From Bacteroidota bacterium (GTDB lineage Bacteria; Bacteroidota; Ignavibacteria; Kapaibacteriales; UBA2268), in contig WRLB01000001.1 of NCBI GenBank assembly GCA_009777815.1, forward strand, positions 1 through 62,739: a DNA stretch of 62,739 nucleotides, read 5' to 3'. Made by a program: the position numbers and the translations under genes. Below are positions 8,124-24,375 of this stretch, piece by piece (within the stretch, counting starts at the first letter, position 1; the number at the start of each line of letters is the position of its first letter). The notes beneath the pieces are model-generated. The model was given only the letters and a program-made list of their open reading frames with translations. It was not told where the DNA came from and ran no database searches.

Positions 8124-8180
8124 CAGTTTTCTTATAAATTTATACGCAAAAATACGATTTTTATAAAAATTTCATATTCG

Positions 8181-8340
8181 TTATGCTGAACTTGTTTCAG
8201 CATCTCCATAAAAAAAGTAATTATGCAGCAAGGGGGCAAGCCCCCTTGTTAAAATAACGATTATTTAACACGGGGGGCTTGCCCCCGTGATGGATAAAGA
8301 GATTCCGAAACAAGTTCGGAATGACATTTTAGATGTCACC
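8181..8340. repeat. Composite palindromic element: F1 left arm, two GC-rich F2 hairpins, F1 right arm plus F3 tail
   Basis: GCTGAACTTGTTTCAGC 8185-8201. CAAGGGGGCAAGCCCCCTTGTTAA 8229-8252. TTAACACGGGGGGCTTGCCCCCGTG 8265-8289. GATTCCGAAACAAGTTCGGAATGACATTTTAGATGTCACC 8301-8340. Confidence 0.8.
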
Positions 8341-20297: not shown

Positions 20298-22394
20298 ATG
20301 AATATCAAATTAAATTATTTATCTATTTTATTAGTGGCATCAACTATTTCACTAAACTCAATGGAAGCGTTTAATCCACCGCCGACTGAAATCATTCCCG
20401 TTGTGGATACGCTTTTTAATTACAATATAATTGATAACTATCGTTGGCTCGAAGATAAAAAAGACCCGAAAGTCCTCGAATGGTCGCAAGCACAACATAA
20501 TTATACTATCGATTATATTAACAAAAACTTCAAACAATATCCTGGAATGAAGGATGAAATCCGTGCTATTTATGATAGAGATAACATTTCTGCTCCATTT
20601 TTCAAGCACGACAGAGAGTTCTTTTATAAAAAGATGCGTGGCGAACAGCAATCTAAAATTTATACAAGAATCAAAAATAAAGAAGTTTTAATCTTTGACC
20701 CTCTTAAAATTGACCCGACAGGAAAAACCGCAATCAATTCATTTGTTCTCACAAAGAAAGGAGATAAAGCCGCTGTTGGAGTGCAATTCCAAGGGAATGA
20801 AGTCAATACTTTTTATGTTATTGATACAAAAACGGGAAAGCAAATAACAGAACCGCTTTCCGGTTTATCGGGCTGGGCTTGGACTCAAGACGAAAAAGGT
20901 GCTTATCTTTGGGAACGCACCCGCGAAATGTTAGAAAAGCAAATCCCTACGATTACTTATTATCACAAATTAGGTGATAATAGAAAAAATGATATAAAAC
21001 TTCTGCAACCCGATAATCCAAAAGATTTTGCAAGTATTTCTGATGACGATGAAGCACCATATACTATTGTTACAGATTCGGATTTTTGGTCTAATACATT
21101 ATATATTATGCCTCTTTATAATACTACAACAAATAACGATTTAACAAAGAAAAAGCAAATTTTTTCAAGCAAAGAGTTTAAAGCAAACCCTGATATTAGA
21201 AAAGATAAAATATATTTTATGACCAATCATAATGCACCAAATTGGAAAATTATGGTTGCTGATATTACTAATCCTGAATTTGAAAATTGGAAAGATTTTT
21301 ATCCCGAAAAAGAAACTAAACTTGAAGGATATGTTTTTACGAGTGATTATTTTTTAGCATATTATCGCAAAGATGTTTTAGCACATATTGATATTTATGA
21401 TTTGAATGGAAACTTCGTTAAAAAACTTGAAATGCCTGAAACCGCTGAACCATCAAGTATGAGTTATCATAAATTAACTAATACCGTTTATATCTCTTTT
21501 ACTTCTGTTGATGTTCCAACAAAAATATATTCGCTAAATGGCAAGACATTAGAGTGGAAATTCTTTTGGCAAGATACGACTATAAAAGTTGATGCAAAAG
21601 ATATTATTGTAGAACAAAAATTTTATAATTCTTTGGATGGCACTCGCATTCCTTTATTTATAATTCGCAAAAAAGATACTCCGCTTGATGGCAATAATCC
21701 TGTATTAATGTATGGTTATGGTGGTTTTAATAATGTTGTAAAACCAAGTTTTTTGAATCATTATTTATCTTTTATTAATCGCGGTGGCATTTATGTTTTG
21801 GGATGTTTTCGTGGCGGAGGTGAGTATGGTGAAGTGTGGCATCAAGGCGGAATGCTAAAGAATAAACAAAATACTATTTCTGATTGCATTGCTGCTTGCG
21901 AGTTTTTGATAAATGAAAAATATACTAATCCTAAACGAATTGCTTTGCGTGGTGGTTCTAATGGTGGAATACTAATTGGAGGGATGGCTGTTCAGCGACC
22001 TGATTTATTTAATGCGGCTGTGTGTGCTGTTCCGTTGTTAGATATGGTGCGTTATCATTTATTTTTAATGGGTCCTTATTGGATACCTGAATATGGTTCT
22101 GCTGATGTTAAAGAGGATTTAGATTACATTTTAACTTATTCGCCTTATCATAATATTCGGTCAGGGCTTGGAGTTCCATCATTATTGGTTAAAGCAGGTG
22201 AAAATGATGCAAGAGTGGATCCATTACACGCTAAAAAGTTTGCAGCAGCGTTGCAAAATCATATAGGACAAATAGAACCAATTTTCTTACATATTGACTT
22301 CGAAAGCGGACACGGAAGCGGACAAGCAATAGACCAACTAATAGATAACTTATACTTCGAACTCCGCTATATTATGGATAGAATAGGAATGTAA
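20298..22394 (+). CDS. Prolyl oligopeptidase family serine peptidase (S9A), secreted
   Basis: Start at MNIKLNYLSILLVASTISLNS (signal peptide). The longer ORF from 20148 overlaps aspS and the promoter. Catalytic region RGGSNGGILIG, ENDARV, ESGHGSG. Confidence 0.9.
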   Translation: MNIKLNYLSILLVASTISLNSMEAFNPPPTEIIPVVDTLFNYNIIDNYRWLEDKKDPKVLEWSQAQHNYTIDYINKNFKQYPGMKDEIRAIYDRDNISAPFFKHDREFFYKKMRGEQQSKIYTRIKNKEVLIFDPLKIDPTGKTAINSFVLTKKGDKAAVGVQFQGNEVNTFYVIDTKTGKQITEPLSGLSGWAWTQDEKGAYLWERTREMLEKQIPTITYYHKLGDNRKNDIKLLQPDNPKDFASISDDDEAPYTIVTDSDFWSNTLYIMPLYNTTTNNDLTKKKQIFSSKEFKANPDIRKDKIYFMTNHNAPNWKIMVADITNPEFENWKDFYPEKETKLEGYVFTSDYFLAYYRKDVLAHIDIYDLNGNFVKKLEMPETAEPSSMSYHKLTNTVYISFTSVDVPTKIYSLNGKTLEWKFFWQDTTIKVDAKDIIVEQKFYNSLDGTRIPLFIIRKKDTPLDGNNPVLMYGYGGFNNVVKPSFLNHYLSFINRGGIYVLGCFRGGGEYGEVWHQGGMLKNKQNTISDCIAACEFLINEKYTNPKRIALRGGSNGGILIGGMAVQRPDLFNAAVCAVPLLDMVRYHLFLMGPYWIPEYGSADVKEDLDYILTYSPYHNIRSGLGVPSLLVKAGENDARVDPLHAKKFAAALQNHIGQIEPIFLHIDFESGHGSGQAIDQLIDNLYFELRYIMDRIGM

Positions 22395-22405
22395 AAACCA
22401 AAAAT

Positions 22406-22461
22406 GTCATTCCGAATTTATTTCAGTGTCTATTTTAACACGGGGATTCATCCCCGTGTTA
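22406..22461. repeat. F1 left arm + F2 hairpin (left half of the composite element flanking the TA pair)
   Basis: GTCATTCCGAATTTATTTCAGTGTC 22406-22430. TTAACACGGGGATTCATCCCCGTGTTA 22435-22461. Confidence 0.8.
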
Positions 22462-22528
22462 TGTAATAATAAATAAAAAAAAGAAAAAGTTATATTTGTA
22501 TTTTGTAAATTAATTATTTAATAAAAAT

Positions 22529-22771
22529 ATGGCAGTAGCAATTGTAGAAGTTCCGTTTCAATTGGATTTATTACAACAAATAGATAATTTCGTCGAAGAA
22601 AAAACTTGTTCAAGAGCAGATATTATTCTTGAAGCAACTAAAATGTATATTGCACATAAACAAAATTGGCAAGATATATTTTTACTTGGTGACCATCTGG
22701 CTTTAGAGAATAATCTCGCTAAAGACGATGTTATAAACGAAATAAAGGCATACCGGCAAGAAAGAAAATGA
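22529..22771 (+). CDS. Ribbon-helix-helix (CopG-like) antitoxin
   Basis: 80 aa. Beta-strand IVEVPF followed by two helices (LLQQIDNF.., SRADIILEATKMY). 4-nt ATGA overlap with the PIN gene. Confidence 0.65.
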   Translation: MAVAIVEVPFQLDLLQQIDNFVEEKTCSRADIILEATKMYIAHKQNWQDIFLLGDHLALENNLAKDDVINEIKAYRQERK

Positions 22772-23193
22772 AACTCGTATTAGATACAAATGTTTTTATA
22801 TCCTCATTTTTTTGGAGCGGCAATCCTCGGAAAATAATGACAAGAATTATAGAAAGAAAAGATGTCCTGTTTGCTTCTAACGAAATACTACAAGAAGTAT
22901 TTTTTGTTATGTCACGCCCTAAATTTAATGTGTCTCATCATCAAGTTGTTCATTTTGTTAATTCTATTGCAGAAATTTCCAGTCGTGTTAATTTATTGGG
23001 AACAGTAAAAGGAGTTTGTCGTGATAGTGATGACGATAAAATATTGGAATGTGCTATATTAGGCAAAGTAGATTTTATAATTACAGGCGATAAAGATTTA
23101 TTAATTTTGAAAAAATTTAAAGAAATACCCATATTATCTCCTTTGGAATATATTGAAAAGATTAAAAAAATTAATAGATTAAACATCCATTAA
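22768..23193 (+). CDS. PIN-domain toxin (VapC-like, PIN_3 type)
   Basis: 141 aa. MKLVLDTNVFISSF (Asp5), ..NEILQEV.., CRDSDDDKILECA, IITGDKDLL acidic residues. Confidence 0.8.
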   Translation: MKLVLDTNVFISSFFWSGNPRKIMTRIIERKDVLFASNEILQEVFFVMSRPKFNVSHHQVVHFVNSIAEISSRVNLLGTVKGVCRDSDDDKILECAILGKVDFIITGDKDLLILKKFKEIPILSPLEYIEKIKKINRLNIH

Positions 23194-23250
23194 CACGGGG
23201 GCTTGCCCCCGTGCTAATTTTATGGGAATTCCGAAATAAATTCGGAATGA
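23190..23250. repeat. F2 hairpin + F1 right arm (right half of the composite element flanking the TA pair)
   Basis: TTAACACGGGGGCTTGCCCCCGTGCTAA 23190-23217 (contains the PIN stop codon). GGAATTCCGAAATAAATTCGGAATGA 23225-23250. Confidence 0.8.
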
Positions 23251-23382
23251 TATTTTGTATAATTCTCCTCATCTGTGCATTCACCACCGCTGCCGATTGC
23301 CTGATTAACGGCGGACCAATGACAGGAGCGTCAATTACAGACGATATAATAATTGCTGATGGATTAGATATACCTAATGTCC

Positions 23383-24375
23383 TTAAATAATAAAGCAATC
23401 AATCAGTTCGTCAATAGAAATTAAATAAAAACAATTAGCATAATTTGTTTCTGAAATCAAATTATATATAGCAGATTTTTCGTATTTGCAATTAATTATA
23501 TGATTCGTAAAATCATCAATATTACCACTAAAAAAGAAGTCACCATTTAGTTTGCAATCATTAATAATTCCGTCTTTAATATTCAAATTAACAATAACAT
23601 TGCCGCCACTTGTTAGTGTTCGTTTGGTAACATTAAATTCGGGCGACTTGCCATAGTTCCACTCCCAAGATAAAAACTTTTTATGTTCTATATTTTTAAT
23701 TATAGGAATATGTTCTTTGGAAATAGTAATTGTTTCCATATTTTTAGTGACAATATTTAGTATTTCATTTTTAAAATCTTCACTTGTCATATCAGGATTG
23801 CTTAAAAAAGGTTTTATGTTAATAACCTTATCTTTCGCCGATTTAACGCTTTTTGAAAAGATTTTATTGGTGCAAATAGTAAGTGCATTATTCATCTTAT
23901 CCAAATCAGCATCAAATAAAATACTACCATGATGCAAGCACCTATTACCTAAACTGAATTGAGCGTTCCCCGAAAACTTACGTTCATTTAAGATAAGGTC
24001 ATTCCTTCCCGAGAAATTACACTCAAGCCCTAATTTTTCCAAAATATACAATATTGGTTTAGTAAAGGCGTGGAAATTATTAGTGTTTTGCTTGTTTTTA
24101 TGTGTAATAAAACTAAATTGCCAGCAATTTTCATCTGTATAAATAGTTCCGCCGCCACTATTTCTTCTGATAATATCTATATTATTTTGTGTTGCATATA
24201 CGCAATTAATTTCCTCTATCGGATTTTGGAATCTACCAACCATTAAAGTTGGTTTATTATTCCATATAAAAAAATAGTCATCATTTAGATTGCTCTGTTT
24301 ATTAGTCATAATAAACTCTTCCAAAGCAAAACTATACGATGCTTTTAATTGATTATCAAATTCAATATATTTCAT
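23383..24375 (-). CDS. lplA: Lipoate--protein ligase
   Basis: 330 aa. RRNSGGGTIYTDENCWQFSF, GRNDLILNERKFSGNAQ, HHGSILFDADL. Confidence 0.88.
   Translation of the reverse strand: MKYIEFDNQLKASYSFALEEFIMTNKQSNLNDDYFFIWNNKPTLMVGRFQNPIEEINCVYATQNNIDIIRRNSGGGTIYTDENCWQFSFITHKNKQNTNNFHAFTKPILYILEKLGLECNFSGRNDLILNERKFSGNAQFSLGNRCLHHGSILFDADLDKMNNALTICTNKIFSKSVKSAKDKVINIKPFLSNPDMTSEDFKNEILNIVTKNMETITISKEHIPIIKNIEHKKFLSWEWNYGKSPEFNVTKRTLTSGGNVIVNLNIKDGIINDCKLNGDFFFSGNIDDFTNHIINCKYEKSAIYNLISETNYANCFYLISIDELIDCFII

Follow-up and report, generated by a model that had tools for sequence, protein, structure and literature searches.

A PIN toxin-antitoxin cassette with junctions at short hairpin repeats, probably inserted into a composite repeat of an Ignavibacteria-like genome

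The window examined here, 62,739 nt in length, is contig C1 (WRLB01000001.1) of a metagenome-assembled genome of a Bacteroidota bacterium (GCA_009777815.1; 1.94 Mb, 31% GC, 73% complete). Between a prolyl oligopeptidase gene (plus strand, stop at 22394) and lplA (minus strand, stop at 23383), the interval 22395-23390 holds a two-gene toxin-antitoxin (TA) operon framed by copies of two families of short hairpin repeats, designated F1 and F2. Their order is mirrored: F1, F2, the antitoxin/PIN_3 operon, F2, and F1 in inverted orientation. We consider it probable that the operon was inserted as a cassette at the F2 hairpin of a composite repeat that was already present, by recombination between F2 copies. 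This view is based on the sequences of the junctions at this locus and at a second site that carries a nearly identical cassette. In the first-pass annotation the structure from F1 to F1, about 850 bp, had been described as an element resembling a miniature inverted-repeat transposable element (MITE), with the TA pair either as its cargo or as an insertion into it. The four flanking elements and their coordinates were borne out by nhmmer and by a repeat search of the window, which gave an F2-to-F2 spacing of 755 bp (Table 1).

The second copy of the cassette and the empty site

A protein search revealed a toxin 99% identical to that of the window (P0001, 137 aa), encoded on two short contigs. 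The left side of this second copy is found on L018 (ENA ERZ27257302) and the right side on L017 (JGI 3300002469); L017 comes from the same sample as L012, a contig identical to the window. Alignment of the window with L018 and L017 gives about 99% identity from ACACGGGG in the left F2 to CCCCCGTG in the right F2, with some 8 differences over 755 bp. Sequence outside this span is unrelated, and on the right the identity stops at the last G of the F2 hairpin (position 23213). As the second copy has only the F2-to-F2 stretch in common with the window and is without these F1 arms, the piece that was relocated is, as judged from the alignment, the F2-to-F2 segment of about 776 bp and not the 850-bp F1-to-F1 unit.

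The surroundings of the second copy are informative on both sides. Upstream of the cassette F2, L018 has F1+ F1- F2 followed by 13 nt. At this site too the cassette is preceded by an F2 of the AT-loop subtype. Downstream, L017 has no F1; the hairpin is followed by ATGCTTTTTTATAAAAAAAAC..., then by a promoter-like stretch, then by a gene whose product has a signal peptide. This right flank (F2, TGCTTTTTT, an A-run, the promoter and a gene for a BspA-like leucine-rich-repeat (LRR) protein) matches a cassette-free paralog at position 6345 of contig C88, and two independent assemblies agree on the right junction. The two cassette versions may represent two loci of one genome or a single locus in two strains; the cassette has been translocated either way. 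The cassette edges offer ambiguous candidates for a target-site duplication (CTATTTTA / CTAATTTTA for the window, TGCTTACTTCT / TGCTTTTTTAT for the second site), both too imperfect for a copy that is 99% identical.

The window itself suggests what the site looked like before insertion. When the flanks 22396-22458 and 23214-23262 are joined, they align end to end with composites of the type F1+ - F2 (AT loop) - CTAATTTT.. - GGGG - F1-, of which those on contigs C48, C24, C16 and C35 (the six-copy type) were used. The sequence that joins the left F1 to the left F2, CTATTTTAACACGGGG, is shared by at least six further F1-F2 dimers. The 755-bp segment begins right after the CCCCGTG of one F2 and finishes with the CCCCGTG of its own F2. 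The simplest reading of these alignments is that the empty site was a copy of the six-copy F1-F2-F1 composite. The earlier proposal of an insertion into a MITE-like element is supported in that the flanks without 22459-23213 rebuild a composite, but this composite is of the F1+-F2-tail-F1- type and not the element at 8181-8340 with which the locus had been compared. The cassette had no match in either of two scans of metagenome contigs with exact patterns. The same-genus genome G001 was unusable as an empty-site comparison because its peptidase ortholog (74% identity) is followed by a response-regulator gene, with neither lplA nor F1/F2.

In view of these junctions a history can be proposed. 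The gap between the peptidase gene and the BspA-like gene and lplA would first have held a composite of F1, a single GC-rich F2, a short tail and an inverted F1. The 755-bp cassette, consisting of leader, antitoxin gene, PIN_3 toxin gene and a second F2, would then have entered at the 3' edge of the resident F2 (CCCCGTG^), which would give F1-F2-[TA]-F2-F1. Movement could proceed by recombination between F2 hairpins, with Campbell-type entry and exit of a circle bearing an F2; such an exit would turn F1-F2-TA-F2-F1 back to F1-F2-F1. Alternatively, the exchange could be a short-homology or template-switch event between F2 copies. After insertion, the left F2 may insulate the operon, the right F2 would probably terminate its transcription, and the pair would be expected to act as an ordinary type II addiction module. 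We infer that F2 is a recombination-active repeat in this lineage; the F2-bracketed YefM-YoeB operon described below, with its variable right F2 loop and its switch of right-hand context, is taken as a further sign of this.

Several observations weigh against this history. Only two contexts of the cassette are known, possibly from two strains, and mobility amounts to a single translocation event, of which the left junction at the second site is read from L018 only. The joined flanks of the window are without the 20-nt tail that is usual in the composite. Look-ups of the exact proteins (lplA product, peptidase, toxin and antitoxin) returned only contigs that are identical to the window or broken at repeats, and no cassette-free strain. 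Genes bracketed by F2 are no commoner than chance (about 25 observed, about 36 expected, i.e. 18 + 18), so the case rests on junction sequences and not on enrichment. The resident and the cassette-borne F2 are indistinguishable since F2 is palindromic and present on both sides, which is the outcome to be expected if one crossover had joined such a pair of F2 copies. In the assembled 73% of the genome no Y1 transposase, no tyrosine recombinase (PF00589, not even one of the Xer type) and no Ssn-like GIY-YIG gene was found; for the first two this may reflect an assembly gap rather than true absence. Finally, the F2 arms offer only some 11-12 nt of homology, which is short for RecA-dependent exchange.

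The repeat families and competing explanations

Profile searches of the 1.94-Mb genome gave 588 matches for F1 and 223 for F2, of which 92% and 94%, respectively, lie outside open reading frames (ORFs). F1 occurs in 21-30% of the intergenic gaps and F2 in 10-17%, divergent gaps included. The F1 consensus, TGTC-AT[G/T]C[T/C]GAA-CTTGT-TTC[A/G]G[C/A]AT-CTCC, was built from 268 exact seeds. The commonest F1 unit is an inverted doublet, F1+, about 15 nt, F1-; tight pairs of this kind number 85, and 73 clusters contain nothing but one such doublet. F2 has 163 exact copies, with consensus flanks ATTTAAC...GTTAAAT. Rfam holds no family for either repeat, and a literature search for the loop sequence gave no match. 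F2 was absent from all 18 same-family relatives searched, the same-genus one included, and among 12 genomes of the same order a single one has it, in one copy. Within the family, occurrence of the F1 loop is patchy: this genome contains 244 copies, and three further genera contain 111, 20 and 19.

Both repeats combine into composites. The F1+ F2- F2+ F1- family has at least five full copies and about eight shortened ones, with a conserved inner spacer TTAAAATAACGATTATTTAA; the F1+ F2 (CTAATTTTTACTCGTATTTAACAAC) F1- composite has six copies. The cargo-free F1-F2-F2-F1 element that had been noticed at 8181-8340 was confirmed at 8180-8327; it folds as a single long hairpin (-71.9 kcal/mol, z = -9.8). 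At the TA locus the left F2 with its flanks folds at -19.8 kcal/mol, and the 86-nt stretch 23180-23265, which covers the right F2 and the right F1, at -27.3 kcal/mol on the plus strand and -34.4 kcal/mol on the minus strand. Two further arrangements were observed in the genome. C29 5540-6074 and C42 6790-7300 each contain 340-400 bp of non-coding sequence full of CAATTATATAATTG palindromes, about 90% alike in the two, between an F1+ F2 F2 half-composite and a further F1; this is a long non-coding 'cargo' in a similar frame. At C13 22803-23834, F2 hairpins and other GC-rich nested palindromes enclose an IS1-like transposase that is encoded by two overlapping reading frames, one for an InsA-like zinc finger and the other for an InsB-like part.

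With repeats this dense, the mirrored frame could be a chance juxtaposition: an operon with its own hairpins lying between gaps that acquired F1 and F2 independently, in a genome where F1 often stands beside F2. The frequencies are compatible with this. An F1 is present within 25 nt of 35% of the F2 copies, 70% of those in the 'outer' orientation, and one intergenic gap in four contains an F1. Of the mirrored F1F2...F2F1 pairs of the genome, that of the TA locus (gap 727 bp) alone encloses genes; five others, with gaps of 10-11 bp, are cargo-free composites, and non-mirrored F1-F2 dimer pairs are present as well (gaps of 91, 121, 398 and 1132 bp). A catalogue of such pairs had been suggested in the first-pass annotation as a check on the MITE-like element; on counts, the mirrored frame is no commoner than chance, with one gene-bearing case against about 0.4 expected for gaps below 1 kb, which is formally the result that the same annotation had named as refuting its idea. 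By counts alone the arrangement is therefore not significant. What argues against chance is the sequence of the flanks. Joined, they rebuild a specific six-copy composite including the spacer CTAATTTT..GGGA. The outer halves of the two F1 copies (22401-22424 and 23233-23256) make up an inverted repeat of 24 nt that is complementary at 23 positions, p ~0.007 per pair, and only 4 of the 587 other F1 copies are as close to the left arm as the right arm is. Under independence, moreover, only about 1.5% of the F2...F2 units would have an outward F1 on both sides. These relations between the arms appear to mark the flanks as one element, and we regard chance juxtaposition as unlikely. Similarity of the arms was also considered as evidence for a split unit; this was dropped, as the two arms of an ordinary F1+/F1- unit resemble each other no more closely than F1 copies paired at random.

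A second possibility, raised by analogy with integron attC cassettes and with peel-and-paste elements of the IS200/IS605 type, is a dedicated system in which an enzyme inserts a [promoter-TA-F2] cassette at the edge of F2 in single-stranded DNA, the enzyme being unassembled or lost. Such a system would account for the fact that in both contexts the cassette starts after the CCCCGTG of an AT-loop F2 and ends with the CCCCGTG of its own F2. It would also fit the layout of an unrelated TA pair. The YefM-YoeB operon at C89 4029-4657 (PF02604, 6e-20; PF06769, 4.8e-40) is bracketed by F2 hairpins as well, and after its left AT-loop F2 it has the motif AAAAGAAAAAGTTATATTTGTAT in common with the PIN cassette, so that the order is again F2-promoter-genes-F2. 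In another assembly this locus is identical except for the loop of the right F2, GGGGATAAATCCCC versus GGGGGCTAGCCCCC; a third contig keeps the left context but departs from it within yoeB, starting with the last 150 nt, and runs into a different right context (contigs L172 and L173). Furthermore, the F2 flanks in their consensus form agree with the core sites of integrons, and homologous cassettes in Bacteroidales are flanked by direct repeats of 15-38 nt, as after site-specific integration. On the other hand, neither of the expected enzymes, a tyrosine recombinase or a Y1 transposase, was found in the assembly, and the F2 copies at the locus itself (TTTTAAC..GTTATGT and CATTAAC..GTGCTAA) misfit RYYYAAC/GTTRRRY. 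F2 is also unlike attC in being 28 nt long and perfectly paired, there is no cassette array, and only two insertion contexts are known. We regard a dedicated system as rather improbable. Its more specific form, in which F2 copies would be the attachment sites of an undescribed hairpin-edge cassette system, with excision and insertion as single strands at the 3' edge of resident GC-rich hairpins, perhaps by an Ssn-like or other hairpin-specific nuclease, and with F1-F2 units as landing pads, must be called decidedly doubtful; it would resemble an integron without the integron integrase.

The remaining explanation is the composite MITE, in which F1L-F2-[TA]-F2-F1R would move as a whole with the F1 inverted repeats as its ends. 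Terminal inverted repeats are present, and at 23/24 over 24 nt the match is closer than in 99% of F1 pairs; yet each arm is one copy of the 588-member hairpin family. Cargo-free composites with the same outer arms exist, an F1+ ... gene ... F1- frame encloses an Ssn nuclease gene in other genomes, and C42 6790-7300 can be written as F1+ F2 F2 [~340 bp non-coding] F1-. Against this, the sole other copy of the cassette is without F1 arms and no other copies of the unit with the same ends were found; the gene-bearing frame is a single example where about 0.4 would occur by chance; and half of the left F1 is degenerate, its inner arm reading TTTCAGTGTC where the consensus has TTTCAGCATC, with outer arm and loop intact. 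The right F1 belongs to another recurrent module, at the 5' end of BspA-like genes, ordinary F1 partner arms show only random-pair similarity, and no transposase or autonomous partner with matching ends was found in the 73%-complete assembly. Target-site duplications, which it had been proposed to look for beyond the F1 arms, gave no clean case: the flanks ..AAACCAAAAA|TGTC and GATA|TTTTGTATAA have no direct repeat, and the sole shared string, the 5-nt AAAAT, is itself part of the repeat consensus. As no other gene is framed in this way and only the F2-to-F2 segment recurs, the idea that the TA genes are the cargo of a compact non-autonomous vehicle bounded by F1 is not supported, and we regard a composite MITE as most improbable.

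The operon, its neighbours and related cassettes

Table 1. Features of the toxin-antitoxin locus and the cargo-free composite used for comparison (positions in the window)
Feature	Position	Strand	Sequence or evidence
F1+ F2- F2+ F1- composite, cargo-free	8180..8327	.	comparison element of the first-pass annotation; 10-13 nt between F2 hairpins
F1, left copy	22405..22432	+	TGTCATTCCGAATTTATTTCAGTGTCTA / TGTCATTCCGAATTTATTTCAGTGTC; nhmmer match 22405-22426, E 0.0013
F2, left hairpin, AT-loop subtype	22434..22461	.	CACGGGGATTCATCCCCGTG / TTAACACGGGGATTCATCCCCGTGTTA; palindrome with perfect 12-nt arms
Inserted segment (inferred), 755 bp	22459..23213	+	AT-rich leader with promoter-like box, antitoxin, PIN toxin, right F2 to CCCCGTG
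Predicted -7 box (TAnnTTTG), Bacteroidota type	22491..22498	+	TATATTTG; 31 nt upstream of antitoxin ATG
Antitoxin, 80 aa, probably ribbon-helix-helix	22529..22771	+	weak ribbon-helix-helix matches
PIN_3 family toxin, 141 aa	22768..23193	+	PF13470, 6.4e-19; TIGR00305, 5.3e-23
F2, right hairpin, GC-loop subtype	23189..23218	.	CACGGGGGCTTGCCCCCGTG / TTAACACGGGGGCTTGCCCCCGTG
Spacer, 14 nt	23214..23227	+	CTAATTTTATGGGA; directly after single F2 and before F1- in cargo-free composites on C48, C24, C16, C35
F1, right copy, intact hairpin	23223..23251	-	ATTCCGAAATAAATTCGGAAT / ATTCCGAAATAAATTCGGAATGA; nhmmer E 4.9e-5
Truncated 47-aa member of the 'gene X' family of BspA-type LRR surface proteins	23247..23390	+	blastn, tblastn, alignment

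The left F1 starts 11 nt past the stop of the prolyl oligopeptidase gene. Between the left F2 and the antitoxin gene lies an AT-rich leader of 67 nt, in which TATATTTG is the predicted promoter box of the operon. TAnnTTTG is the -7 promoter consensus of Bacteroidota. The box sits within AAGAAAAAGTTATATTTGTAT, which is also found behind F2 hairpins at other loci, among them the YefM-YoeB cassette on C89. Exact matches of 20-24 nt to parts of the promoter stretch occur on C110, C89, C2, C71, C25, C12 and C58, and those on C89, C71 and C58 include AAGAAAAAGTTATATTTGTAT.

The antitoxin and toxin genes overlap by 4 bp (22768-22771, ATGA), the toxin ATG being at 22768-22770 and the antitoxin TGA at 22769-22771. 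In the first-pass annotation the pair was called ribbon-helix-helix (RHH)-PIN. The PIN half is well founded on the PF13470 and TIGR00305 matches. The RHH identity of the antitoxin is plausible but weakly supported: no match was found in Pfam, NCBIfam gave a weak match to the RHH family aCcr1 (E 0.0036), and the PDB a weak match to the CopG regulator 7by2 (E 0.62). An AlphaFold (AF2) monomer model of low confidence (pLDDT 53) has an unstructured N-terminus and helices at 12-24 and 29-46, and this order of elements would fit an RHH fold with a toxin-binding tail. Antitoxin partners 69-78% identical to this one are encoded upstream of every homologous toxin examined (L020, L022, L023 and L024).

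The toxin stop codon, TAA at 23191-23193, lies within the TTAA flank of the right F2, as had been noticed before. Its position there is a secondary effect. The end of the toxin gene (23158-23193) has a run of seven A where the sister copy has six, and the extra A shifts the frame of the last codons, so that the window toxin ends in ...KKINRLNIH and the sister toxin in ...KKLID. P0001, with 137 aa, stops 13 nt before F2, and homologs have 134-135 aa; from these lengths the catalytic core is judged to be untouched by the frameshift. The right F2 is a plausible terminator of the operon, being a strong hairpin, albeit without a U-run, and F2 copies are somewhat closer to stops than to starts. A role of F2 as a plain terminator in general is ill-fitting, as the repeat is also present in 10% of the divergent gaps and missing from relatives.

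The nearest relatives of the toxin (72-76% identity) are found in Bacteroidales genomes, whereas purA places the host with Ignavibacteria/Kapabacteria-like members of the FCB group. For this reason the TA pair appears to be foreign to the host and horizontally acquired. No F2 follows the toxin homolog with 76% identity. In Bacteroidales, RHH-like/PIN_3 cassettes lie between direct repeats, which are duplicates of the promoter region of the gene that follows. These are 38 nt (one mismatch), 36 nt (perfect) and 15 nt long in L020, L022 and L023, respectively, at approximate positions 2684-2721 / 3399-3436 in L020 and 1489-1524 / 2194-2229 in L022, and in L020 the toxin stop is inside the direct repeat. 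The second copy of the cassette studied here (L018/L017) has a 26-nt promoter duplication with two mismatches. Such duplications look like an insertion scar of variable length.

On the right, the outer end of F1 (GGAATGA) provides the ATG of the 47-aa ORF. This remnant keeps a signal peptide and the conserved N-terminus of its family and is cut off at the end of lplA. The BspA-type LRR family has at least 12 paralogs in the genome, a full-length member of which matches LRR_5 at 9.7e-15. A doublet F1+/F1- with the ATG from the GGAATGAC end of F1-, followed by a signal peptide, was found at six other loci (C3 24375, C27 10920, C74 4745, C44 13570, C10 25060 (rc) and C21 3990 (rc)). From this recurrence we conclude that the F1 doublet and the start of BspA-type genes probably spread together.

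Relation to known hairpin systems and significance

Among described repeats, F1 most resembles the NTS repeat of Neisseria, CGTCATTCCCGCGMAVGCGGGAATCYRG. NTS/dRS3 and the Ssn-related motifs (SRM) have been described together with SsnA GIY-YIG single-strand nucleases by Chenal et al. 2025 (PMC11893778), who also cite in-silico work proposing dRS3 repeats as homologous regions for recombination (PMC11893778). F1 and NTS have a common frame, GTCATTCC...GGAATC, in a common orientation, so that F1 shows the GTCAT-tagged, oriented hairpin frame CGTCATTCC...GGAATC. Like NTS, F1 is present in hundreds of copies, nearly all of them intergenic, often as inverted pairs and clustering around genes. The published SRM pattern, HGTCWYN(0-2)YYVSBRH..., had no matches in the genome, although it does detect the NTS control.

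Species representatives of many phyla carry the exact F1 core ATKCYGAACTTGTTTCRGMAT, at no fewer than 120 loci (L025-L144). Bacteroidota, Sphingomonadales, Treponema, Nitrospirota, Ignavibacteria, Gastranaerophilales, Endomicrobium and a Nanoarchaeota genome are represented; the loop GAACTTGTTTC is constant and the stems covary. In four of five other genomes with F1-type hairpins (L152, L158, L165 and L167) a gene of about 100 aa with a GIY-YIG translation (YVYIL..LYIGVT..REKQLKNW) lies between F1-type hairpins, in an arrangement comparable to NTS-ssnA-NTS. L152 and L158 have an inverted pair at the gene edges, and L165 and L167 have both orientations on both sides. No small GIY-YIG ORFs were found near 120 random F1 matches in other phyla, the association being seen only when starting from GIY-YIG genes. 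On this comparison F1 is best classed as a new member of the Ssn-related hairpin class, and at the TA locus as a bystander that is part of the resident repeat. The neisserial intergenic mosaic elements belong, with NTS/dRS3, to the closest known systems. One difference is that the cassette junctions here are at F2, a second hairpin family that is absent from the description in PMC11893778.

Other systems share parts of this organization. REP/BIME repeats and REPINs, which go with RAYT (IS200/IS605-like) transposases, are likewise short palindromes arranged as inverted doublets and intergenic mosaic clusters; in this 73%-complete assembly no Y1 transposase was found, and REPINs are not known to carry genes besides RAYT. 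Chromosomal integron cassettes, which consist of an ORF and an attC hairpin, often carry TA pairs, and the locus resembles them in the order hairpin - genes - hairpin, in that the cassette abuts a resident hairpin in both of its known contexts, and in the similar layout of a second TA pair. It differs in that no IntI or other tyrosine recombinase (PF00589) is found in the assembled part, that F2 is far shorter than attC, scattered, and without extrahelical bases in its stems, and that the cassette has its own promoter-like leader. The genes themselves are similar to type II systems of the VapBC kind in the PIN_3/TIGR00305 toxin, the small upstream antitoxin gene, the 4-nt overlap and the patchy distribution. 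Here the antitoxin is outside all Pfam families.

The locus is a new example of repeat-mediated cassette mosaicism, and there is a modest chance that a hairpin-specific insertion mechanism is hidden in it. It provides a sequence-resolved case of a TA operon that has come to stand in new surroundings and whose two junctions both fall at copies of a short hairpin repeat. The case bears on the question, raised by the Ssn/NTS systems, of what dense hairpin repeats do around accessory genes: in this genome F2 would mark the break points of cassette exchange and synteny, and the Ssn-like F1 would be a passive frame. If the junctions are enzyme-specific, they would point to a novel route by which small gene cassettes move; otherwise they would reflect ordinary repeat-mediated mosaicism.

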